From positions 11,396 through 75,395 of the forward strand of contig WGER01000027.1 of NCBI GenBank assembly GCA_015492645.1: DNA of 64,000 bases, written 5' to 3'. Positions 2,642 to 64,000 of this stretch are shown here, piece by piece. The notes beneath the pieces are model-generated. The model saw only the letters and a program-made list of their open reading frames with translations. It was not told where the DNA came from and did no database searches. The stretch comes from Nitrospirota bacterium. GTDB lineage: Bacteria > Nitrospirota > Thermodesulfovibrionia > Thermodesulfovibrionales > JdFR-85. Each line of letters opens with the position of its first letter. The stretch's first letter is position 1. A program made the translations under genes and the position numbers.

Positions 2642-4213
2642 GTGAGTGTTGGAGGAACGGTCCTAACCCTGCTTTCTGCCACACTACTTACAGCAGGACT
2701 GACTCCAGAGAGATCCCTTATTATAATGGGGGAGCCCTTCCCACCTGCAGACCTCTCTTCAGTCGCCTGGATTGCACTGGTCCCCTTCCTTTATCTCACT
2801 TCACGGACGAAACCGTCTCAGTCCTTCAGGCAGGGTCTCTTCCTCGGTTTTCTCTTCTACTTCGGCACCCAGTACTGGATATACCACTCCATAAACAACT
2901 ATGGTGGTTTACCACTGGCCAGTAGCCTGGCAGTGGTGATGCTGCTCTGTCTGTATGAGGCACTTTATACGGCACTCTTCGGCTGGGTTGTCAACCACCT
3001 TAACCGAATCACATCACTGCCCATGGCAGTATATGCACCATCTCTATGGATGGTGCTTGAATATCTGAGAGGTGTCCTTTTCACCGGCTTTCCCTGGTCA
3101 CTGCTTGGATATACCCAGACAGATAATCTCACAGTGATACAGATTGCTGATCTGACAGGGGTCTACGGGGTCTCCTTTCTGGTGGTCCTTGTAAACTCCA
3201 CGCTAACAGACATTATTATTGAAAGAAAGAGGATAATCTCTGTCATATTAACAGTAACCCTTCTTGCCGGGTCCATCATATACGGGCATCATAAACTCCA
3301 ATACTTAAAGGGGTTAAAACCCGAAAAGACTATGAGGTTGGGTGTCATCCAGGGCAATATAGATCAATCAATCAAATGGGACAGCCGTTACAGAGAAGAG
3401 GTACTGAATAAGTACAAGAGGATGTCCTCTGAGGCCCTGATATATGGAGTGGATTTGATAATCTGGCCTGAAACCGCGCTACCCTTTTATTTTGATTATG
3501 AAAGACCGTACACAGATGACCTAAAGGCCTTTGTACAGGAAAACTCGATGGTGCTCCTGACAGGTACACCAATGGTAAAGGAGAGGATACCTTCAGGGGA
3601 AGGCTCCTATCAATACAGAATCTCCAACAGCGCTGTGCTGATCCTTGGAGATGGAAAAGTGGGGGGGGTTTATGATAAAATACATCTGGTTCCCTTTGGA
3701 GAATATGTGCCCCTTAAAAGTATCTTCTTTTTTGTTGACAAACTGGTAGAGGGGATAGGTGACTTTCAAAGGGGTGAAAACCTCACCCTTTTCAGGATAA
3801 AGGGTAAGGAAGGTTATACGAGTTTCTTTACCCTGATATGTTATGAGGCAATCTTTCCCTCACTGGTGAGGAGGTTCCCTCAGGCGGACTTTATGGTAAA
3901 TATAACGAATGATGCATGGTTTGGCAGGACGGCAGGCCCCTATCAGCACTTTGAGATATCCCGTGTGAGGGCTGTAGAGAACAGGATGCCCCTTGTAAGG
4001 GCTGCAAATACAGGAATTTCAGCGATTGTGGATATGAGTGGTCAGGTATTGGAGAGGACGGATCTATTCAGGGACGATAAGATTATTACGGAATTGAGAA
4101 TCTCAAAGGTAGAGAGTTTATACAGGAGATTTGGTGACATTTTTGTCTATTTAAATTTTGTTTATATCGGAATACTCTGGATTATGAGTCAAAAAGTGAC
4201 TCTTAAACAATGA
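2642..4213 (+). CDS. lnt: apolipoprotein N-acyltransferase
   Basis: N-terminal multi-TM region, LIIWPETALPFY, catalytic-Cys context LICYEAIFP, and a nitrilase-like C-terminal domain. The ORF-track start 2504 overlaps tadA by about 100 nt. GTG 2642 is the first plausible start before the first TM helix; the start is uncertain. Confidence 0.85.
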   Translation: MSVGGTVLTLLSATLLTAGLTPERSLIIMGEPFPPADLSSVAWIALVPFLYLTSRTKPSQSFRQGLFLGFLFYFGTQYWIYHSINNYGGLPLASSLAVVMLLCLYEALYTALFGWVVNHLNRITSLPMAVYAPSLWMVLEYLRGVLFTGFPWSLLGYTQTDNLTVIQIADLTGVYGVSFLVVLVNSTLTDIIIERKRIISVILTVTLLAGSIIYGHHKLQYLKGLKPEKTMRLGVIQGNIDQSIKWDSRYREEVLNKYKRMSSEALIYGVDLIIWPETALPFYFDYERPYTDDLKAFVQENSMVLLTGTPMVKERIPSGEGSYQYRISNSAVLILGDGKVGGVYDKIHLVPFGEYVPLKSIFFFVDKLVEGIGDFQRGENLTLFRIKGKEGYTSFFTLICYEAIFPSLVRRFPQADFMVNITNDAWFGRTAGPYQHFEISRVRAVENRMPLVRAANTGISAIVDMSGQVLERTDLFRDDKIITELRISKVESLYRRFGDIFVYLNFVYIGILWIMSQKVTLKQ

Positions 4214-4231: not shown

Positions 4232-5381
4232 ATGCTTACAGTTGGTACAGTAAGAGAAGAACTGGAAGTTCTGCAGAGAAGGCTCACAGAACTGAGAGGT
4301 TATCTTTGAGGTAGATAGACTGAAAGAGGAACTATCAGAGATAGATGGTAAGTTAAGCAGAGAAGACCTCTGGACAGACTACGAACGGATAAAGGAGTTA
4401 CAGAAGAAGAGGGCAGAGATTGAAGACATCTTAGAGCCCTTTCAGTCCTTAGAGGACCGTCTCAAGTATCTCCTGCAGACTCAGGAACTCCTTGAAGAAG
4501 AGGAGGGTGAACTCCTTCTGGAGGAATTCACAAAAGAACTGAAGACCCTGAAGGAAGAGATTGATAACTTAGAACTGAAACATCTGCTGTCATCAGAACA
4601 TGACCGGTCCAATGCGATATTGGAGATACATCCCGGGGCAGGAGGTACAGAGAGTCAGGACTGGGCTGAGATGCTTCTGAGAATGTATCTTCGTTGGGCA
4701 GAAAAACATGGATACAAGACAGAGATAGTTGATATTCAACCAGGAGAGGAGGCAGGAATAAAGAGCGCAACACTGACCATCTCAGGCCCCTATGCCTATG
4801 GGTATCTTAAGGCAGAAAATGGAGTCCACAGGCTTGTAAGGATTTCACCTTTTGATGCAAATAGAAGGAGACACACATCCTTTACAGCAATCCTTGTATA
4901 TCCAGAAATAGAAGAGGATGTGGATGTGGAGATCAGGGAGGAGGACCTCAGGATTGATACCTTCAGGGCATCTGGTGCCGGTGGTCAACATGTAAATAAG
5001 GTATCTTCTGCAGTAAGAATAGTTCATATCCCGACTGGTATTGTGGTTACCTGTCAAAATGAAAGGTCTCAGCACAGAAACAGGGCGATGGCGATGAAGA
5101 TACTCAAGGCGCGGTTGTATGATATGAAGAGAAAGGAACAGGAAGAGAAACTCCAGGGACTGATTGGTGAAAAGAGGGAGATAGCATGGGGAAATCAGAT
5201 CCGTTCCTATGTGCTCCATCCATACAAGATGGTAAAAGACCACAGGACCGGGGTTGAGGTATACAGTGTTGACGCAGTACTTGATGGTGACATTGATATA
5301 TTTATAAGGGCTTATCTGAAGGGTCTCCGTTCGAATACCGAGTCTGGGGCTTCTTCTAAGGAGTCTTTAAAGAGAGAGTAG
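4232..5381 (+). CDS. prfB: peptide chain release factor 2, requires programmed +1 frameshift at 4304-4310
   Basis: SD gagggagg, then ATG 4232. Frame 0 gives MLTVGTVREELEVLQRRLTELRGYL, then TGA at 4307. The +1 frame continues EVDRLKEELSE... into the 4620 ORF (NAILEIHPGAGGTESQDWAEML, SGAGGQHVNK). Confidence 0.93.
4295..4310 (+). promoter_or_regulatory. RF2 autoregulatory +1 frameshift site
   Basis: AGA GGT TAT CTT TGA G: an internal SD-like AGAGG three nt upstream of the slippery CTT followed by an in-frame TGA. Confidence 0.9.
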
Positions 5382-6966: not shown

Positions 6967-10486
<3,520 letters not shown>

Positions 10487-23005: not shown

Positions 23006-23929
23006 ATGTATAAAAAGATACTCTATCCCATAAAGTTTGAAGAGTTTTCCCTTGATGTCCTGAGGTGTATCCTTGCCTTTAAGAATGCTGGCACTGAGGA
23101 GATAGTCTTTGTCCATGTAATAGATGTCTCTAAGATGCCGATGGACAGATATGAAGGATATTCCCCTGTTGATGTGGAGTCTCTAAAGGCGATTGCTAAG
23201 GAAAAGATGAAGGAGGCAGTAAGGATTGCAGAGGCCGGGGGACTCAAGACAAAGGAGATAATTCGCACTGGAGTCCCCTATCGGGAGATACTGAAGGTGG
23301 CAGAAGAAGAGCCGGGGGTGTCCTTGATTGTCTCTGGCAGGCAGAAAAAGAGTATTCTTAAAGAGATATTCATAGGCTCTAACACAGACAGGATTATCCG
23401 CTATGGTGATATACCTGTCTTCATCCCGAAATATCCAGGTGTTTTTGGTATCACCAGTAAGGAGGAATGTGAGAGAATCTGCCAGAATATCTTTAAAAGG
23501 GTCCTCTATCCCACAGACTGGTCTGACTGTGCAAGGGTGACCTTGCAATACATTAAGGCACTGAAAGGGGCAGGGGTTGAGGAGGTTGTGGTTGCCCATG
23601 TGATGGATGAAAAGGCAATGAGACTTCAACCACCTGACAGGTTCAGGGAATTTGAAAAAGAGGACATGGAAAGACTTGAGGAGGTAAAGAGAGAACTTGA
23701 AGAGACAGGCTATAAGACAAAGACAAGGCTTGAAGTGGGAAGGCCAGGTGCTGACCTGATAAGGATTGCCCGTGAGGAGGATGTGACCCTGATTGTGATG
23801 GGCTCCCATGGCAAGGGCTATGTGGAAGGTATCCTCTGGGGCTCTGTCTCAAGGAATGTGGTTGAATACAGCGACAGGCCTGTGTTGCTTGTAAAGAGCG
23901 AAAAATGCCTGAAGGAGGTTAGACCATGA
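23006..23929 (+). CDS. tandem universal stress protein (2x UspA domain)
   Basis: Two USP repeats, each ending in a G-x2-G-x9-GS-type motif (IVSGRQKKSILKEIFIGSNTDR; VMGSHGKGYVEGILWGSVSRNV). SD agggaggg before ATG 23006. Confidence 0.85.
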   Translation: MYKKILYPIKFEEFSLDVLRCILAFKNAGTEEIVFVHVIDVSKMPMDRYEGYSPVDVESLKAIAKEKMKEAVRIAEAGGLKTKEIIRTGVPYREILKVAEEEPGVSLIVSGRQKKSILKEIFIGSNTDRIIRYGDIPVFIPKYPGVFGITSKEECERICQNIFKRVLYPTDWSDCARVTLQYIKALKGAGVEEVVVAHVMDEKAMRLQPPDRFREFEKEDMERLEEVKRELEETGYKTKTRLEVGRPGADLIRIAREEDVTLIVMGSHGKGYVEGILWGSVSRNVVEYSDRPVLLVKSEKCLKEVRP

Positions 23930-24258
23930 AGGTAGAGATCTATGACCCACCCATGTGCTGTTCATCAGGCCTCTGCGGGCCGAATATTGACCCTGTGCTT
24001 GTGAGGGTAAACGAGGCTATATTGAACCTAAAAAAGCAGGGTGTGGAGGTCAGGAGGTTTAACCTTGCCCAGCAGCCAAAGGCATTCATGGAAAACCCTA
24101 CAGTAAAATCCCTTCTTGCAAAGGAGGGTAAGAAGATTCTGCCCATCACCATAGTAAATGGTGAGGTCTTCAGGACCTCTGGGTATCCATCCTATGAGGA
24201 ACTCTGCAAGGCTCTTGGGATTGAGCCTTTAAAAAGTATTCCTATAATTAGGGTTTAA
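23926..24258 (+). CDS. arsD: arsenical resistance operon metallochaperone ArsD
   Basis: MKVEIYDPPMCCSSGLCGP, the Cys12-Cys13-Cys18 signature. Confidence 0.92.
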   Translation: MKVEIYDPPMCCSSGLCGPNIDPVLVRVNEAILNLKKQGVEVRRFNLAQQPKAFMENPTVKSLLAKEGKKILPITIVNGEVFRTSGYPSYEELCKALGIEPLKSIPIIRV

Positions 24259-24340
24259 TCGGTGAAGCGGCAACTCGGTGAAGGGGTAAAGTCGGTGAAG
24301 AGGTGAAGGGGTGAAGGGGTAAAGAGGTGAAGGGGTGAAG
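24259..24340 (+). repeat. tandem 8-nt repeat array (about ten units, consensus NNGGTGAA), left arm of the cassette
   Basis: tcggtgaa gcggcaac tcggtgaa ggggtaaa (g) tcggtgaa gaggtgaa ggggtgaa ggggtaaa gaggtgaa ggggtgaa. Supplies the SD and GTG start of the next ORF. Confidence 0.9.
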
Positions 24341-24709
24341 AAAGGATATCAAAGTTTTAAGGAATTGAAGGTATGGCAGGAAGCCAGGACACTTGCAGTG
24401 AGGATATATAAGATTACTTCTTCAGGTGCATTATCAAGAGACTTTGGCTTTAGAGACCAGATTCGACGTGCAGCAATATCTATTCCTTCTAATATTGCCG
24501 AAGGATATGAAAGAGGAACTGATAAAGAGTTTATTCGTTATATCATGATAGCAAAAGGCTCCATTGCAGAATTAAGGACGCAATTGGAAATAGCAAAGGA
24601 AATAGATTATCTGGATTCACAAATATACGATGAACTGGAAAATCTTTGTAACAAAATAGGTGCAATGCTAACGAAATTGATCAGAGCAAGGAGTGCCAAT
24701 AATGTCTGA
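24335..24709 (+). CDS. four-helix-bundle protein (23S rRNA intervening-sequence protein / Avd-like family)
   Basis: 124 aa. N-terminus FKELKVWQEARTLAVRIYKIT and later NIAEGYERGTDKEFIRYIMIAKGSIAELRTQLEIA match my recollection of the PF05635-type family. GTG start at 24335 inside the repeat. Confidence 0.75.
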   Translation: MKKGYQSFKELKVWQEARTLAVRIYKITSSGALSRDFGFRDQIRRAAISIPSNIAEGYERGTDKEFIRYIMIAKGSIAELRTQLEIAKEIDYLDSQIYDELENLCNKIGAMLTKLIRARSANNV

Positions 24710-26618
24710 TGTAAATACAAAATTTACCGATTCACCCATTAACCGATCAACCACTTCACCATTATATATCTTCTTCTCAGGCAAAGGCGGAGTGGGAAAG
24801 ACCACTATGGCCTGTGCAACGGCCATCTACCACGGTATTCAAGGCAAAAGGACACTTATTGTCTCAACCGACCCCGCCTCTAATCTATCGGATGTATTTG
24901 AACAGCAGATTGGCCATAAGGTGGTAAAAATAAATGGTGTGGAAAACCTCTTTGCCATGGAGATTGACCCTGATGAGGCCACCCGTGAATACAAGGAACG
25001 GATTATTGCCCCTTTCAGGGAAGTGATGCCCGAGGATGTGATAGCCTCCATTGATGAACAGTTAAGCGGCCCCTGCACCACTGAGATGGCAGCCTTTGAC
25101 CGATTTATTGACTTCATGGAGACCGATGATTACGACATTATAGTATTTGACACTGCTCCCACAGGGCACACCATCAGGCTTCTGGAACTGCCTGTTGACT
25201 GGTCACGGCACATTGAGGAGGCATCAAAGGGCACGGGGCAGACCTGTCTTGGCCCTGTGGAGACCATACAGGGCTCTAAGGAACGGTATGACCGTGCAAC
25301 AGCACTGCTTAAGGATCCTCAAAAGACGAGGTTTATATTCGTCATGCGTCCTGATGAGTTGTCTTTATACGAGACACTCAGGGCATCAAAGGAACTTGAA
25401 AGCATAGGGATAAAAAAAGGCGAGATTATCATAAACGGCATCCTGCCGGCGGAGGTCTGTGAGGTAGAGTTTTTCAGGAAGAAATACCACGCCCAGCAGA
25501 GGGTCATAAAAGAGGCAGAAGAGATCTTTGCTGATATTCCCAGGAGATATATGTTACTAAGGGATTCTGAAGTAAAAGGGATTGATAACCTTAAGTCACT
25601 GGCAGTGGAGTTGTTTGGCGGTGAAGCGGTGAAGGAGTTAATCGGTGAAGCGGAAAAAGAGTCCACCACTTCACCACTTCACCGAGTCACCTCTTCACCG
25701 TCCTCCCGCTTCACCTATTCACCTCTTCACCGAATGACCGCTTCACCGCTTTCGCTTTTTTTGCCAGTTAACACTGGAACAAGGGCTGTTTTCTTCACTG
25801 GAAAGGGCGGGGTTGGAAAGACCACCATATCCTGCATCACTTCATTATTTACTGCAAAGAAAGGTCATAAGAGCCTTCTTGTCACCACAGACCCTGCCGC
25901 ACATATCGGTGAGGTGCTGGATGTTAAGATCGGCACTGAACCAGTAGAGGTGACCGAAAACCTTTTTGCAGTGATGGTTGACCAGGAAGAGGCGTTTAAG
26001 GAGTACAAGGAGCGGATACTCAATGAGGCAAGGGGCAAATACTCAGAGGAGATGCTTCGGGCAATGGAGGAGGAACTGAACTCCCCATGCACTGAGGAAA
26101 TGGCAGCCTTTGACAGGTTTATTCAGTTTATAGAGTCACGGGATTACGATGTAATAGTATTTGATACCGCACCAACAGGGCATACACTGAGGCTTCTGAG
26201 CCTTCCCTTTGATTATGCAAGGCAGGTGGAGATGATGGTCTCAGGAGCCGGGGCTGAAAAGGCAAAGGAAGATACGGAAAACCGTTTCAAAGAGATAATC
26301 AACCTCCTTAAAGACACTAAAAGGACGACCTTCTGCCTTGTCTTATATCCCGAATCCACACCCATTGAGGAGTCCTATCGTGCCATGCTTGACCTTAAAG
26401 ATGCAGGAATTGAGACGCAACTGGTAGTGGCAAACATGATTATTCCAGAGGAGGTCTGCGTTAATGACTTCTTCCGTAACAGAAGGGCCATGCAGTTAAA
26501 ATACCTTGAGGAGATAAAAAAGAGATTTGGACTTCCAGTTCTTGAATTTCCTCTGATGGAGGATGAGATAAGGGGAATGGAAATGCTAGAAAGGGCCCTC
26601 TCATATCTCGTTGAATGA
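24702..26618 (+). CDS. arsA: arsenite-transporting ATPase ArsA (A1-linker-A2)
   Basis: Two P-loops GKGGVGKTT, two DTAPTGHT signatures, and As(III)-ligand Cys contexts (SGPCTTEMAAFD, GQTCLGP, NSPCTEEMAAFD). The N-terminal extension and the linker are repeat-derived. Confidence 0.93.
   Translation: MSDVNTKFTDSPINRSTTSPLYIFFSGKGGVGKTTMACATAIYHGIQGKRTLIVSTDPASNLSDVFEQQIGHKVVKINGVENLFAMEIDPDEATREYKERIIAPFREVMPEDVIASIDEQLSGPCTTEMAAFDRFIDFMETDDYDIIVFDTAPTGHTIRLLELPVDWSRHIEEASKGTGQTCLGPVETIQGSKERYDRATALLKDPQKTRFIFVMRPDELSLYETLRASKELESIGIKKGEIIINGILPAEVCEVEFFRKKYHAQQRVIKEAEEIFADIPRRYMLLRDSEVKGIDNLKSLAVELFGGEAVKELIGEAEKESTTSPLHRVTSSPSSRFTYSPLHRMTASPLSLFLPVNTGTRAVFFTGKGGVGKTTISCITSLFTAKKGHKSLLVTTDPAAHIGEVLDVKIGTEPVEVTENLFAVMVDQEEAFKEYKERILNEARGKYSEEMLRAMEEELNSPCTEEMAAFDRFIQFIESRDYDVIVFDTAPTGHTLRLLSLPFDYARQVEMMVSGAGAEKAKEDTENRFKEIINLLKDTKRTTFCLVLYPESTPIEESYRAMLDLKDAGIETQLVVANMIIPEEVCVNDFFRNRRAMQLKYLEEIKKRFGLPVLEFPLMEDEIRGMEMLERALSYLVE
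24723..24761 (+). repeat. right arm of the cassette (inverted copy of 24260-24300), translated as the ArsA N-terminal extension
   Basis: The reverse complement tggtgaagtggttgatcggttaatgggtgaatcggtaaa aligns along its length with cggtgaagcggcaactcggtgaaggggtaaagtcggtgaag. Confidence 0.75.
25617..25754 (+). repeat. gene-less inverted octamer array translated as the ArsA A1-A2 linker
   Basis: Left arm, 4-5 GGTGAAG-type units (25617-25653). Loop aaaaagagtcc. Right arm, eleven ACCNCTTC units (25665-25754). Total 138 nt = 46 codons, with an 8-aa periodic peptide TTSPLHRV TSSPSSRF TYSPLHRM TASPLSLF. Confidence 0.88.
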
Positions 26619-49381: not shown

Positions 49382-49503
49382 CTCGGATTGTCTTGTCCAT
49401 ATAACTCCTTACCTGACCATCAAACCGTCATGGACCTCATAAATTATAAAGGTTTTTATGACAAAATTCAAATCAATGAACTACTCTGTAAATTGCCTGT
49501 TGT

Positions 49504-49537
49504 CCTTCGCCTATCGCCTCTTGCCTCTTTGCCTCTG
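49504..49537. repeat. short tandem 7-8-nt repeat (tcgccta tcgcctc ttgcctc tttgcctc)
   Basis: Read directly from the sequence. Lies in the intergenic region upstream of reverse gyrase. Confidence 0.6.
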
Positions 49538-60741: not shown

Positions 60742-61473
60742 TTGTCAAACTTCATAACAAATAGCCCTAACAAAAGCCTCAAAAGGAGACTCCAGGAACT
60801 CGTCTCAAAAAGTCGTGAACTAAAGTTCCTTGTGGGCTTTTTCTACTTCTCGGGCCTGAGGGAACTATATGAGGCCCTTAAGGACAACCCTCATGTGAAG
60901 ATAAAGGTCCTTGTATGGCTCAATATTGACAGGACCGCCTATGGCCTTATTGAACACGGACACAATGAAAGAGGACTTTCCGATGAGGAAAGGCTTTACC
61001 AGTTCTTTGAATCCATCAGGAACTCCATAAACACAGAGCAGTTTGACAACCGTGAATTTTACGAGCAGGTCAGGTTCTTTCTTCAACTCATAAAAACAGA
61101 CAGGCTAATTATCAGAAAGACCCATGAGCCGAATCATGCAAAACTCTACATCTTCAAACTTGAAGAGGGACAGGTGGTAAGAAATGCCCTGTTTATTACA
61201 GGCAGTAGCAACCTCACCGCCTCCGGACTGACAGGACAGCAGGAGTTCAATGTTGAGATAAGTGATTACGGTATAGAGGAGGCAGAGGAATATTTTGACA
61301 GACTCTGGCAGAGAGCAATCCCCATCACGGAGGACTCTGTAACAAAGGCCCGCCTCATTGAGGTCCTGGAAAAGGAGACCCTCATTAAGGAGATCACACC
61401 CCTTGAGGCTTCGCCCTGGTCCTCAAGAGTTATCTTGACAGTTTCCGCGGGAAGGACCTCAGCGAGAGGGTAA
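60742..61473 (+). CDS. PLD-like (HKD) nuclease domain, the N-terminal part of a PLD-SNF2 helicase fusion, ended by a frame break
   Basis: SD gaggagtgagg plus TTG 60742. LKFLVGFFYFSG and the HKD motif HAKLYIF...ITGSSNLTASGL. The reading frame ends at 61473, but the next frame is open from 61407. Confidence 0.75.
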   Translation: MSNFITNSPNKSLKRRLQELVSKSRELKFLVGFFYFSGLRELYEALKDNPHVKIKVLVWLNIDRTAYGLIEHGHNERGLSDEERLYQFFESIRNSINTEQFDNREFYEQVRFFLQLIKTDRLIIRKTHEPNHAKLYIFKLEEGQVVRNALFITGSSNLTASGLTGQQEFNVEISDYGIEEAEEYFDRLWQRAIPITEDSVTKARLIEVLEKETLIKEITPLEASPWSSRVILTVSAGRTSARG

Positions 61474-64000
61474 TAGACCTGCTTGAAGAAAATGGCTACC
61501 GAAGGTATAGGTACCAGATTGATGCCGTCAGACAGGCACTTTCCATAATTGAGCGGAACAACGGTGTCATCATTGCCGATGTCGTTGGCCTTGGAAAGAC
61601 GGTGATTGCCTGTGCCATAGCCTTTGAACTTAAAAAGAGGGGGATTGTGATTGCACCACCTGGGATTGTTGGTAATGAGGCAGGCACTGAGGGCTGGAGG
61701 AGGTATCTTGAGGAGTTTCACCTGACGAAACTGGGCTGGAAGGCATTCTCTCTGGGAAAACTTGAAACAGTGGCCGAGTTTGTAGCAAGGGCAAAGGACA
61801 TAGAGGTGGTGATTGTTGATGAGGCACACAGGTTCCGTAACCAGGACACCAAGGACTACGAACTCCTGAAAAACATCTGCAGGGGCAGGACTGTCATACT
61901 CCTTACTGCCACCCCCTTCAACAACCGCCCTTCAGACATCTTTTCTCTCCTGAAACTCTTTATCACACCCAAAAAATCCACCATAACCCTTACGGATGAC
62001 CTTGAATCTAAATTTACTGAGTTCAGGAGCATCTTTGACAAACTCTCCTATATCAAGCGATATGCAAACTCCCCAGACCCAAAGAAGGCACAGAGGGCGG
62101 TCTCCTTTTACAGGGCACTCTTTGGAAAGTCAGAGATAAACCTCTCAGAGGTAAAAGACCGTGCCCACTACATGGCAAGGCAGATAAAACATACCATTGA
62201 GCCTGTAACCATCAGGCGTAACAGGCTTGATCTGCAGGGAAATCCCTATTACCGGAATGAGGTCAGGGAACTCTCAAGGGTGGAAGACCCTGTTGAGTGG
62301 TTTTATGAACTGACAAAGGAGCAGTCAGTGTTTTATGACCGTGTGATCAATGAATACTTTGCCCTCCCGGAGGATGGAGGGCTCTTTAAGGGCGCCATTT
62401 ACAGACCCTTTATCTACAAAGTCGGCATAGACGCCTTTGATGACCTGGCCAGGGAGGAAAACTTTCAGTATATCCAGCAGTTCAACCTTTACGATTTCAT
62501 GAGAAGGCTTCTTGTTAAGAGATTTGAGAGTTCCTTTGGTTCCTTCCGTCAGAGCCTTGAAAACTTCAGGGACATAACCAGCACTGTACTCGGATTTATA
62601 AGGAAAACAGGTAGATACATCCTTGACAGGCAATTACTTATGAGGATTTACACAGAAGACATGGAGACCATTGAAGATGAACTCAGGCAATACGCAGAAA
62701 GGATAAAAAAGGGCGAATATCCCAAACACCACGAAGTCTATGAGGTTGACAAATTCAAAGACCCTGAGAGGTTCCTTTCTGATATTGAATCTGACAGGGC
62801 CCTTTTTGAGAAGATTCTTGAGGAACTGGAAGGCCTTGCTCTGGTAAAACACGATCCCAAGGCAGAATGCCTGATAAAGAATCTCAAATTTCAAATCTCA
62901 AATCTTAAATCTCCAAAGCCAAAGGCTGTCATCTTCTCAGAATACCTTGACACGGTCCGTTACCTTGAGCCCCTCCTGCAGGATGCATTCAGCGGTAGGG
63001 TCTTTGTGGTAAAAGGCGATCTTACAAGGACAAAGACCCGTGAGATTCTCGCCAACTTTGATGCTTCCTATCCAGAGGACCAGCAGGCCGATGACTACGA
63101 CGTCCTCCTTACCACTGACCGAATCTCTGAGGGGTTCAATCTCAACCGTGCAGGCATAGTAATAAACTATGATATCCCATGGAACCCCGTCAGGGTCATC
63201 CAGAGGGTGGGCAGGATCAACCGTATCGGCAGGAAGGTCTTTGACAGCCTTTACATAGTAAACTTCTTTCCCACTGAAAAGGGGGCAGACCTTGTCCGGT
63301 CCCGTGAGATAGCCTCAAACAAGATGTTTCTCATCCACAATGCCCTTGGAGAGGATTCAAAGATATTTGACATAGACGAAGAACCCACACCCTCAGGTCT
63401 TTACAACAGGGTCCAGCAAAACCCTGACACTATGGAACAGGAGAGTTTCTATACAAGGGTCCTGAAGGAGTTTGAAAGGATAAAGTCTGAGCATCCTGAG
63501 GTTGTTAACAGGCTGAAAGACTTTCCACCAAGGGTAAAGGTGGCAAAACCCTCCGACAGGGACGAACTCTTTGTCGTTATCAAAAAGGGAAGGCTCTTTG
63601 TCTATTACAAGGACTACTCTGGCACAGAGATAGAACTCAAGGACCTTGAGGACATCCTTGACAGGGTCAGACCCTCTGACGCCTCCCTCAGGCCTCTCCC
63701 CCTCAGCAAGCGGTTCTGGGATGAGTATGAGATGATAAAGAACTTTAAAGAGACAGGCAGGCTGACCTTAACAGAGCAGAGCATAAAACAAAAGGCAATC
63801 AACAACCTCAAGGCCATGCTCTCTGCGGAGGCAATGGAAGAACTTATACCCCTTAAAGGGTTTCTCAGAACACTCCTTGAAGACATTCTTGACTACGGTA
63901 GCCTTTCTGACTATACCCTGAGAAGGATTGCAAACATAGATTTACAAAAGAACGGCCTTGAGGAGATAAGGGCACTCAAAAGAGAACTTGGTGAGGATTA
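61407..64000 (+). CDS. SNF2-family helicase portion (no own start codon; 3' end outside window)
   Basis: Not in the ORF track because it has no stop in the window. I checked by hand that the frame with codons starting at 61407 is open at the junction (61407-61500) and at 63960-64000. The lack of any + strand ORF after 61473 in the track fits a single open frame in between. Motif I ADVVGLGKT, motif II VVIVDEAHRFRN, motif III LLTATPFNN, motif V/VI LLTTDRISEGFNL...NYDIPWNPVRVIQRVGRINRIG. Confidence 0.85.
62881..62915 (+). repeat. in-frame 7-nt tandem repeat inside the helicase gene
   Basis: tctcaaatt tcaaatc tcaaatc ttaaatc tccaaag, translated NLKFQISNLKSPK. Confidence 0.6.

Follow-up and report, generated by a model that had tools for sequence, protein, structure and literature searches.

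A gene-less inverted octamer array in the linker of arsA, and its probable kinship with the repeat-bracketed PF05635 cassette next to it

In a stretch of 64,000 nucleotides (nt) from a Nitrospirota bacterium of the class Thermodesulfovibrionia (contig WGER01000027.1, positions 11,396 to 75,395; the whole stretch is called the window here), the arsA gene carries between its two halves, A1 and A2, a block of inverted octamer repeats that holds no gene. Some 900 nt upstream, the same type of unit brackets a small gene for a four-helix-bundle (4HB) protein. The locus thus raises the question of how the block in the linker is related to this cassette, and how a protein-coding gene can carry such a block at all. 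The reading that we prefer, and to which we would give a probability of about 0.75, is that the arsA block is an in-frame solo member of a family of repeat hairpins resembling the intervening sequences (IVSs) of 23S rRNA, the gene-carrying form of which is the neighbouring 4HB cassette. The comparisons reported here demonstrate family membership by unit and geometry, the in-frame linker site, the age of the array, its coding constraints, its fast turnover and the architecture of the cassettes; that the block is translated we infer from the sequence, because the reading frame is intact in all orthologues.

Read on the + strand, the block begins with a left arm at 25618..25653, consisting of 4.5 NGGTGAAG units for which Tandem Repeats Finder (TRF) gives period 8 and 71% matches, and which exact matches and the reading frame resolve, in order, into CGGTGAAG CGGTGAAG GAGTTAAT CGGTGAAG CGG. 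A loop of 10 nt (AAAAAGAGTC, 25654..25663) leads to the right arm at 25664..25751, which has 11 units of CACCNCTT (CTTCACCN; TRF period 8, 11.0 copies, 71% matches). An earlier note, made from the letters of this DNA alone, had described four to five left units and eleven reverse-complement right units, and TRF agrees on both counts; the 11-nt loop given there is shortened to 10 nt by the TRF boundaries, its length depending on the start that is chosen for the first right unit. The loop is without an open reading frame (ORF), as had been claimed, and it holds no recognisable remnant of a 4HB gene, tblastn with 4HB proteins matching only 24335-24706 in the window. The whole block would be translated as STTSPLHRVTSSPSSRFTYSPLHRMTASPLSLF, in which the right arm gives the predicted peptide with a period of eight residues (TTSPLHRV TSSPSSRF TYSPLHRM TASPLSLF).

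The unit is the same as that of the cassette upstream, and it is concentrated at these two places. The heptamer GGTGAAG is found 38 times in the window against 12.7 +/- 3.5 expected; the block itself has three exact heptamers on the + strand (25620, 25628, 25644) and six on the - strand (25669-25747). When a three-unit pattern, GGTGAAGNGGTGAAGNGGTGAAG, was searched with up to 3 mismatches, 11 matches were found against 0.01 expected, and all of them were confined to 24294-24340 or 25620-25747. The two arms of the block are 81% complementary over 36 nt (inverted repeat I8), and between its right arm and the array that precedes the 4HB gene (24292-24338; I1) complementarity is likewise 81%, over 47 nt, in line with the earlier claim that both belong to one unit family. 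The geometry is shared as well, with GGTGAAG units followed by CTTCACC units and the G-rich strand pointing inward, as in PF05635 cassettes. Folded as RNA, the block reaches -52.5 kcal/mol (z = -5.8), and none of 200 shuffles was as stable, which bears out the long hairpin potential proposed for the arsA mRNA.

The block makes up residues 306-351, in frame, of the ORF 24693/24702-26618. ArsA chains in the PDB align to residues 19-304 and 361-630 and leave 305-360 unaligned; since the solved structures skip the residues of the block, it corresponds to the A1-A2 linker. In an AlphaFold model built on 32 orthologues both halves are folded, and the predicted local distance difference test (pLDDT) falls below 50 at residues 1-17 and 315-346, i.e. 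at the two repeat-derived peptides of the protein, the first of which comes from the cassette described next.

The gene-carrying form lies between arsD and arsA, with all of its parts on the + strand. The stop codon of arsD (23926..24258; Pfam ArsD E = 1.1e-38) stands 2 nt before the first unit of a left, G-rich array at 24259..24340, which has about ten NGGTGAAG units, seven exact heptamers and two TRF calls of period 8 (24259-24323 and 24277-24340). The last unit of this array includes the GTG start of the 4HB gene (24335..24709, 124 amino acids (aa)), so named for its four-helix bundle and assigned to PF05635 with E = 3.7e-40 over profile positions 1-105 of 106, to TIGR02436 with 130 bits (cutoff 24) and to NF008912 with 133 bits (cutoff 124). 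The family is called "23S rRNA intervening-sequence protein", and PF05635 has been known since the 1990s as an ORF within rRNA intervening sequences. The right, C-rich arm of the cassette (24723..24760; inverted repeats I14, I15 and I22) is decayed to about five units and lies inside arsA, where it is translated as ArsA residues 8-20 (FTDSPINRSTTSP). What the stem-loop IVSs with their PF05635 genes are to 23S rRNA, the 4HB cassette would be to protein genes.

Despite both repeats arsA appears to be a working gene. It is intact (24702..26618, 638 aa), matches the Pfam family ArsA_ATPase in two halves with E = 1e-159, NCBIfam GET3_arsA_TRC40 with 520 bits and the PDB ArsA chains 9nbl and 1f48 over both halves with E = 1e-103 to 1e-105, and has two P-loops and two DTAPTGH motifs that are invariant in 32 orthologues. 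Its ATG (24702) overlaps the stop codon of the 4HB gene (ATGTCTGA), with AAGGAG 10 nt upstream of the ATG. The window's ArsA begins MSDVNTKFTDSPINRSTTSPLYIFFSGKGG, while relatives without a cassette begin MKYIFFSGKGG, and therefore the cassette gave arsA a new start codon and a repeat-made extension of 19 residues. An N-terminal extension derived from the right arm is also present at L116 (2425-2470) and L245 (3862-3905; L numbers are our handles for the loci compared). On its other side, in the window, L116, L126 and Dissulfurispira thermophila, it is from the left array that the 4HB gene takes its ribosome-binding region and start codon. The cassette carries no transposase; neither a reverse transcriptase nor a template/variable repeat was seen next to it among the called genes, no search having been aimed at either. 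A sigma-70-like promoter match (24221-24248; TTGAGC, 16 nt, TATAAT; 10/12) is found at the end of arsD before the left array and is not conserved in L116.

This anatomy is not peculiar to the window. We fetched 80 metagenomic loci encoding 4HB relatives, 64 of which had at least 150 nt of flank on both sides, and counted as a flanking array any tandem repeat with period 6-10 and at least 2.5 copies. Of these 64 loci, 49 had an array upstream, 52 had one downstream and 41 were flanked on both sides, against a background of about 0.1 per flank. In a set of 106 non-duplicate PF05635 loci that included phage contigs, the upstream period was 7 in 61 cases, 8 in 12, 9 in four and 6 in two; G exceeded C in 71 of the 79 upstream arrays, and among the 65 array pairs the period was equal on both sides in 61 and the units were reverse complements in 51. 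The phage contigs gave flanking arrays at 27 of 31 PF05635 loci, and the layout recurs on finished plasmids from Nostoc sp. ATCC 53789 and Riemerella anatipestifer. Taken together, inverted arrays of 6-9-nt units, mostly of 7 nt and G-rich upstream, flank about 80% of the PF05635 genes from metagenomes, phage contigs and finished plasmids. The units themselves are diverse (GGTGAAT, TAGGGAC, TTAGGGG, GGGTGAT, GTGGTGTA and others), and the fact that two 4HB paralogues in one metagenome-assembled genome (MAG) have GGTGAAG and AGAACAA, respectively, implies that the unit belongs to the cassette and not to the genome. L127 is an exception in layout, its 4HB gene being flanked by arrays of CCGATTCA / CCGATCCA type (2452-2487, 2941-3100) in the same orientation. 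Two candidate interpretations were dropped: the metagenomic cassettes are not classical IVSs, as 0 of the 80 loci qualified by conserved 23S motifs and low ORF coverage, and L197 and L198, considered as one locus with two units, are unrelated at the DNA level. Many close 4HB relatives sit on very short contigs (0.5-3 kb), which suggests that assemblers break at the flanking arrays and that cassettes are probably under-represented in MAGs.

A solo array near a cassette of the same unit, as in arsA, is likewise found elsewhere. Of other arrays, 89 lie no more than 2.5 kb from a cassette; 24 of these have its unit, compared with a rough chance estimate of about 2%. Several of the solo same-unit arrays keep the frame of a neighbouring gene. 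They sit at its N-terminus or between two of its domains, as between CbiA and GATase_3 or at both such places in a GFO_IDH_MocA-Hexapep protein; an array inside a DegT aminotransferase is a further example. A cassette followed shortly downstream by a gene-less array of its unit in a linker is therefore a recurrent pattern. In L010, from a related MAG, a G-rich array (7228-7258) is located in the 5' leader of a tetrapyrrole methylase gene and a reverse-complement array (7485-7515), 226 nt downstream, is in frame (TSPLHHFTSSP), so that the two bracket the start of the methylase gene.

The DNA-level comparison of the ars locus took in five orthologous loci and places the linker array in time. L121, whose A1 is 98.6% identical to that of the window, has a VapBC pair between arsD and arsA and a decayed linker array that is 24 nt shorter, with a fold of z +0.7. 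L122 (A1 93%) also has a VapBC pair, with a repeat-free linker of 117 nt (fold z -0.65) that contains the motif KRPDI..LWLP, as in distant orthologues. L124 (A1 87%) has no cassette, an arsD/arsA overlap at ATGA and a symmetric, decayed linker hairpin (fold z -5.4). L116, a Thermodesulfovibrionales MAG (A1 80%; 4HB 66% and ArsA 75% identical to those of the window), has a 4HB cassette with a GGTGAAG-type unit as in the window and a linker with 4 left and about 13 right units (fold z -5.2). Both assemblies of the cultured D. thermophila have the order arsD, array, 4HB, arsA, with the right cassette arm translated as MSKLFTTSPLHPFTQYIFF and an arsA linker of about 11 C-rich units without a G-rich arm. 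A cassette between arsD and arsA plus a linker array is hence the layout common to the window, L116 and both D. thermophila assemblies, and the linker array is old, being common to Thermodesulfovibrionia relatives whose ArsA proteins are 75-98% identical. Across relatives the arsD/arsA junction is a hotspot for small cassettes. The window (24259-24701), L116 and D. thermophila have the 4HB gene there, L121 and L122 (about 3307-4000) have VapBC pairs, L206 (1415-1705) and L208 (2189-2482) have a HesB-like Fe-S gene, and L124 has no cassette, its arsD and arsA overlapping at ATGA (2465).

Several observations weigh against our reading. The linker measures 174 nt in the window and 117 nt in the repeat-free orthologue, a net gain of 57 nt, and the ancestral KRPDI motif is overwritten; the block of 138 nt that the earlier note placed between the ArsA halves is therefore no clean insertion of that length. 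Neither a target-site duplication nor a clean boundary is visible at the block in the orthologue comparison, and as the array replaced part of the old linker without duplication or clean edge, "insertion" is a matter of inference here and not of observation. The mosaic among close relatives (window, 4HB and a fresh array; L121, VapBC and a decayed one; L122, VapBC and none; L124, no cassette and an array present) requires recombination or repeated gain and loss. Within the window GGTGAAG arrays occur at two sites only, and their dispersal through the genome is extrapolated, from the 64 kb read, by way of a related MAG, on 4 contigs of which at least 6 arrays were counted. When species-representative genomes were scanned for three GGTGAAG units, at least 120 loci were returned, in at least a dozen phyla, and by tblastn and a hidden Markov model built here a PF05635 ORF was found at only 5 of 120 among the matches listed. 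The arrays at these 120 loci comprise 129 single arrays, 11 hairpins, 4 pairs that face outward and 12 that face inward around cargo, and no interpretable ORFs were found as cargo between the more distant inward-facing arrays among the matches listed; most GGTGAAG arrays are thus not beside a cassette, and some, in high-GC genomes, may be unrelated coding repeats. Finally, L208 has fresh units without a local cassette, and therefore a neighbouring cassette is not needed to keep arrays fresh. The contrast between the window (fresh, with a 4HB cassette) and L121 (decayed, without one) had suggested such a role for the local cassette, which L208 rules out as a requirement.

How the block could be accommodated in a gene becomes clearer when the two strands of the unit are read as codons. 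Repeats of CTTCACCN run through the codons CTT, CAC, CNC, TTC, ACC, NCT, TCA and CCN and are stop-free in every frame; repeats of GGTGAAGN read GGT GAA GNG GTG AAG NGG TGA, with a stop at each third unit. This stop in the GGTGAAGN strand explains both the shortness and degeneracy of the G-rich arm and the freedom of the C-rich arm to grow, and the asymmetry of the arms (4.5 vs 11 units) is likewise due to coding. In each of the three carriers compared, the third G-rich unit on the sense strand is altered (AGTTAATC in the window, GGTTAATC in L116, GATTGATC in L124), and the degenerate third unit of the left arm avoids the in-frame TGA that a canonical unit would create.

The site is permissive too. 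Among the 120 best ArsA orthologues, 100 have no insert, with a median linker of 38 aa, and 19 have recognisable repeat-derived linkers, which are of three kinds. The arsA linkers of other Nitrospirota, L206 (near 2610-2690) and L207, carry different repeat elements, one of them an inverted octamer hairpin with another unit (TTGAGAAG.../CTTCTCAA x5) and one a GGGG/CCCC palindrome translated as LAKGGEGGF. With three unrelated repeat elements occupying ArsA linkers, the linker acts as a general sink for repeat DNA. The tolerance that had been proposed for it is borne out by these 19 linkers and by the low pLDDT at 315-346, and repeat-free orthologues elsewhere do not share the window's linker, theirs being shorter and unrelated (NGKRHEYKTVALSSSSHEINVKRPDIASLWLP); a homologous linker of equal length and sequence but free of repeats, which the earlier note had named as refuting its reading, is thus not what the orthologues show.

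Once in place, arrays change quickly. Between the window and L121, A1 is 96.95% identical at the nt level and 92.6% at third positions, and the array is about 79% identical, with an indel of 24-25 nt, i.e. three units. The two D. thermophila assemblies (AP022873.1, L245, and BLAB01000001.1, L246; compared at 3475-3500 for the cassette array and ~4770-4840 for the linker array) have A1 and A2 at 97.1% and 97.9% nt identity, third positions at 93.0% and 95.7%, and the array at 83.7% with a 3-nt indel; in their intergenic cassette array 3 units stand against 1, and the lengths differ by 16 nt. Arrays turn over 2-3 times faster than synonymous sites. The coding indels seen are multiples of three, and the single non-coding one is not. 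Of 20 window/L121 differences that are informative with respect to the consensus, the window has the consensus base in 18 and L121 in 2, and this bias in the turnover suggests slippage and unit conversion in the window, or directed decay in L121.

On our preferred reading, translation carries the block along as a neutral passenger, in the disordered linker of an arsA that looks functional. The solo copy would persist because the CTTCACCN strand is stop-free, the sense GGTGAAGN arm is short and has a mutated third unit, and the linker accepts almost any length and sequence. It would behave as a hypervariable coding minisatellite, in which units are gained, lost and rewritten faster than by neutral point mutation, with selection on arsA passing frame-keeping changes only. 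Arrays of one unit, including the cassette arrays 900 nt away, might exchange sequence by slippage and gene conversion, and such exchange with the cassette arrays would hold the window's copy near the consensus. Whether the solo copy derives from a cassette is a separate matter: that it is a derivative or footprint of one could well be so, but we hold this tentatively, at slightly less than an even chance.

A bolder extension, which we regard as decidedly doubtful, is that PF05635 genes define a widespread, undescribed class of mobile cassettes whose ends are inverted, lineage-specific arrays of 6-9-nt units that are actively made or renewed, the gene-less arrays being footprints or landing pads. 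Renewal might then proceed by gene conversion, or by the templated addition of repeats where a break leaves two 3' ends; G-rich strands directed inward from either side are, speculatively, the outcome to be expected of such addition, and the Avd-like 4HB protein might take part in renewing the arrays. If true, this process would also lie behind the IVSs of rRNA, the short tandemly repeated repetitive (STRR) sequences of cyanobacteria and many odd peptides of periodic sequence in bacterial proteins.

Among the alternatives, the one that survives best reverses the order of events. The gene-less inverted array would come first, as a vehicle or landing pad, 4HB genes and perhaps other cassettes would enter its loop by homologous recombination, and the arsA copy would simply be unoccupied. 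L124 fits this well, having a linker hairpin, no cassette anywhere in the ars operon and the ancestral ATGA overlap of arsD and arsA, and so does the excess of gene-less over gene-carrying arrays (11 hairpins and 129 single arrays vs 3 beside a 4HB gene at the 120 listed loci); in bacteria of the candidate phyla radiation (CPR), rRNA insertions with and without an ORF have been reported at the same sites. However, 4HB paralogues in one genome with different units tie the unit to the gene lineage and not to a host-wide population of hairpins, and the supply of the 4HB ribosome-binding region and start by the left array is easier to understand if gene and arrays form one unit. We consider this order of events rather unlikely.

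If instead the structure itself were selected, the arsA hairpin might be cut by RNase III, make translation pause between the halves or, as an attenuator, set the expression of A1 against that of A2. The strong fold, comparable in L124 and L116, speaks for this, as do a run of seven T after the stem of the arsA block and the precedent of rRNA IVS stems, which are RNase III substrates. Against it, the closest relative, L121, has lost the fold with arsA intact, and the linker of D. thermophila has the C-rich arm only. In the arm mismatches of 50 cassettes no G.U bias was found (60 sense-compatible vs 64 antisense-compatible), Rfam at gathering threshold gave no match and no rRNA in the whole window, and a terminator scan made no terminator-like call at the arsA hairpin. 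An internal start that would split ArsA by re-initiation at the in-frame ATG 25734 was also considered and rejected, as it has no ribosome-binding sequence and the ATG is absent from L121 and L116. The sequences give no sign of selection on the RNA structure or the peptide of the block, and a selected structure is, in our view, improbable.

Growth in place, in which a microsatellite expanded from the native linker by replication slippage and the shared unit is a coincidence or the product of a local sequence drive, would account for the absence of clean insertion boundaries, for the unit-like AATGGTAAA with which the repeat-free linker begins and for array lengths that shift by whole units between relatives. 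Slippage alone, however, yields no inverted pair of arms. Nor does it explain that the GGTGAAG-type unit also brackets the 4HB gene 900 nt away and recurs in other genes of a related MAG, that a different octamer (TTGAGAAG/CTTCTCAA) has the same inverted layout in the ArsA linker of another lineage, or that same-unit arrays are enriched more than tenfold near cassettes. It seems quite improbable to us.

Two further proposals give the block a function in ArsA itself, and we give both very little credence. In the first, a longer, flexible linker rich in Ser, Pro, Thr and His would improve the interaction of A1 with A2. The reading frame is always kept, as this would predict, and mutagenesis of the E. 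coli ArsA linker reportedly found it to be needed for function, which we count in its favour; but the window and L121, with 98.6% identity in A1, agree in only about 66% of the linker peptide, repeat elements that are unrelated encode equally unrelated peptides here, and 100 of the 120 best orthologues do without an insert. In the second, the block would be a phase-variation switch: each 8-nt unit gained or lost would put arsA out of frame or back into it, and so silence or restore it. The unit length is indeed not divisible by three, and unit number changes between near-identical strains (the intergenic array of D. thermophila, 3 vs 1). The units are imperfect, though, with 71% matches and at most two identical in a row, making slippage rare, and the coding indels seen are all multiples of 3 nt, with the qualification that a protein-based orthologue search would miss frameshifted alleles. 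Assemblers do break at arrays, as the many 4HB genes on very short contigs indicate, but that the block is an artefact of assembling a repeat-rich region can virtually be dismissed, since identical arsA and 4HB genes stand on an independent NCBI contig (JALUQK010000002.1), homologous arrays occur in orthologues from independent MAGs and a complete isolate genome, and the ORF is intact.

Returning to the block as a solo member of an IVS-like family, its closest relative among known systems appears to be the 23S rRNA IVS of Leptospira, Coxiella and others. The two are alike in a stem of terminal inverted repeats that encloses a PF05635/TIGR02436 gene (in our case in the neighbouring cassette, 24259-24760), in the existence of ORF-less versions and in a sporadic distribution that suggests mobility. 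The block is nevertheless no member of that class on the sequence evidence, being situated outside rRNA, in protein-coding DNA that is apparently read in frame, with a stem built of tandem 8-nt units that differ in number between the arms. The PF05635 ORF is missing from its 10-nt loop and is present in only some IVSs. The IVS of Coxiella has a terminal stem of 28 bp and has been termed a selfish element, and rRNA IVSs are excised by RNase III. PF05635 genes have also been noted inside cas loci, shown in a CRISPR-association figure and found in CPR rRNA insertions; a description of PF05635/4HB genes with flanking repeat arrays was not found in the searchable literature, and cassettes of this kind, with repeat-built ends, are apparently an undescribed and widespread kind of small gene cassette.

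The other comparisons are more distant. Rickettsia palindromic elements (RPEs) are consensus copies of 100-150 bp without internal tandem structure or an associated gene. Like RPEs and MITEs (miniature transposable elements with inverted repeats), the block seems to be palindromic repeat DNA in frame inside an intact ORF, adding a peptide at a permissive site; a review of MITEs (PMC10969869) counts RPEs and in-frame insertion among its subjects. Unlike RPEs and MITEs, arsA-type copies have nothing but a 7-8-nt unit in common, vary freely in length (about 50 to 140 nt) and also exist in a gene-carrying form, and the terminal inverted repeat with target-site duplication of MITEs was not seen at their junctions. 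The STRR sequences of cyanobacteria are dispersed arrays of 7-nt units in and between genes, and they differ from the arsA block in that its unit is 8 nt and its host belongs to the Nitrospirota. Among plasmid matches to the 4HB protein, Nostoc, Calothrix and Anabaena predominate, and a Nostoc plasmid copy is bracketed by GGGAAAA/CCCTTTT-type arrays. STRR heptamers may thus be the same phenomenon as PF05635-flanking arrays; a link of STRR sequences to PF05635 genes or to an inverted two-arm layout was not found in the searchable literature. With the contingency loci of Haemophilus and Neisseria the block shares a non-triplet tandem unit inside an ORF and a unit number that varies between close strains, but its units are imperfect and in both orientations and are not linked to a surface or restriction gene, and no out-of-frame alleles were seen, in a protein-based search that would miss frameshifted ones. 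The 4HB protein is also a distant homologue of Avd from diversity-generating retroelements (bAvd Pfam E = 3.9e-4); its score of 25 bits against NCBIfam Avd is below the cutoff of 80 bits.

For the PF05635 family, these comparisons provide a testable anatomy of inverted arrays, one unit per lineage and empty same-unit arrays in neighbouring genes, an architecture that links rRNA IVSs, dispersed heptamer and octamer repeats and in-frame repeat peptides, which have hitherto been treated apart. For annotation, it accounts for low-complexity inserts of periodic sequence at N-termini and between domains and for assembly breaks near 4HB genes, and may explain spurious "CRISPR association" of the latter. 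As regards protein evolution, it is the coding properties of the repeat unit that decide at which site and in which orientation selfish DNA survives in genes. The fact that the locus is present in cultured D. thermophila, with a complete genome, makes experiments feasible.

Other short repeats occur in the window. An intergenic heptamer array of TTGCCTC type, with about 6 copies, lies at 49493-49536, with no partner array or 4HB gene nearby. In a MoCF_biosynth (molybdopterin-binding) gene there are two in-frame inserts (100-215 and 565-625), which consist of heptamer arrays (AGGAGTC / AGAAGTC) around the palindrome CCCCGAAAAATCGGAGATTTTTCGGGG, are translated as ...SEESGVKSQESGGAPEKSEIFRGREVGSQRSEG... 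and KESEVRRGPRKIRDFSGLIP, and represent a family distinct from the arsA repeats. Five AATCTCA units (62880-62913) are in frame (NLKFQISNLKSP) in the ORF of an SNF2-type helicase (61407-63998), where they stand at the start of the Helicase_C match (residues 487-608).

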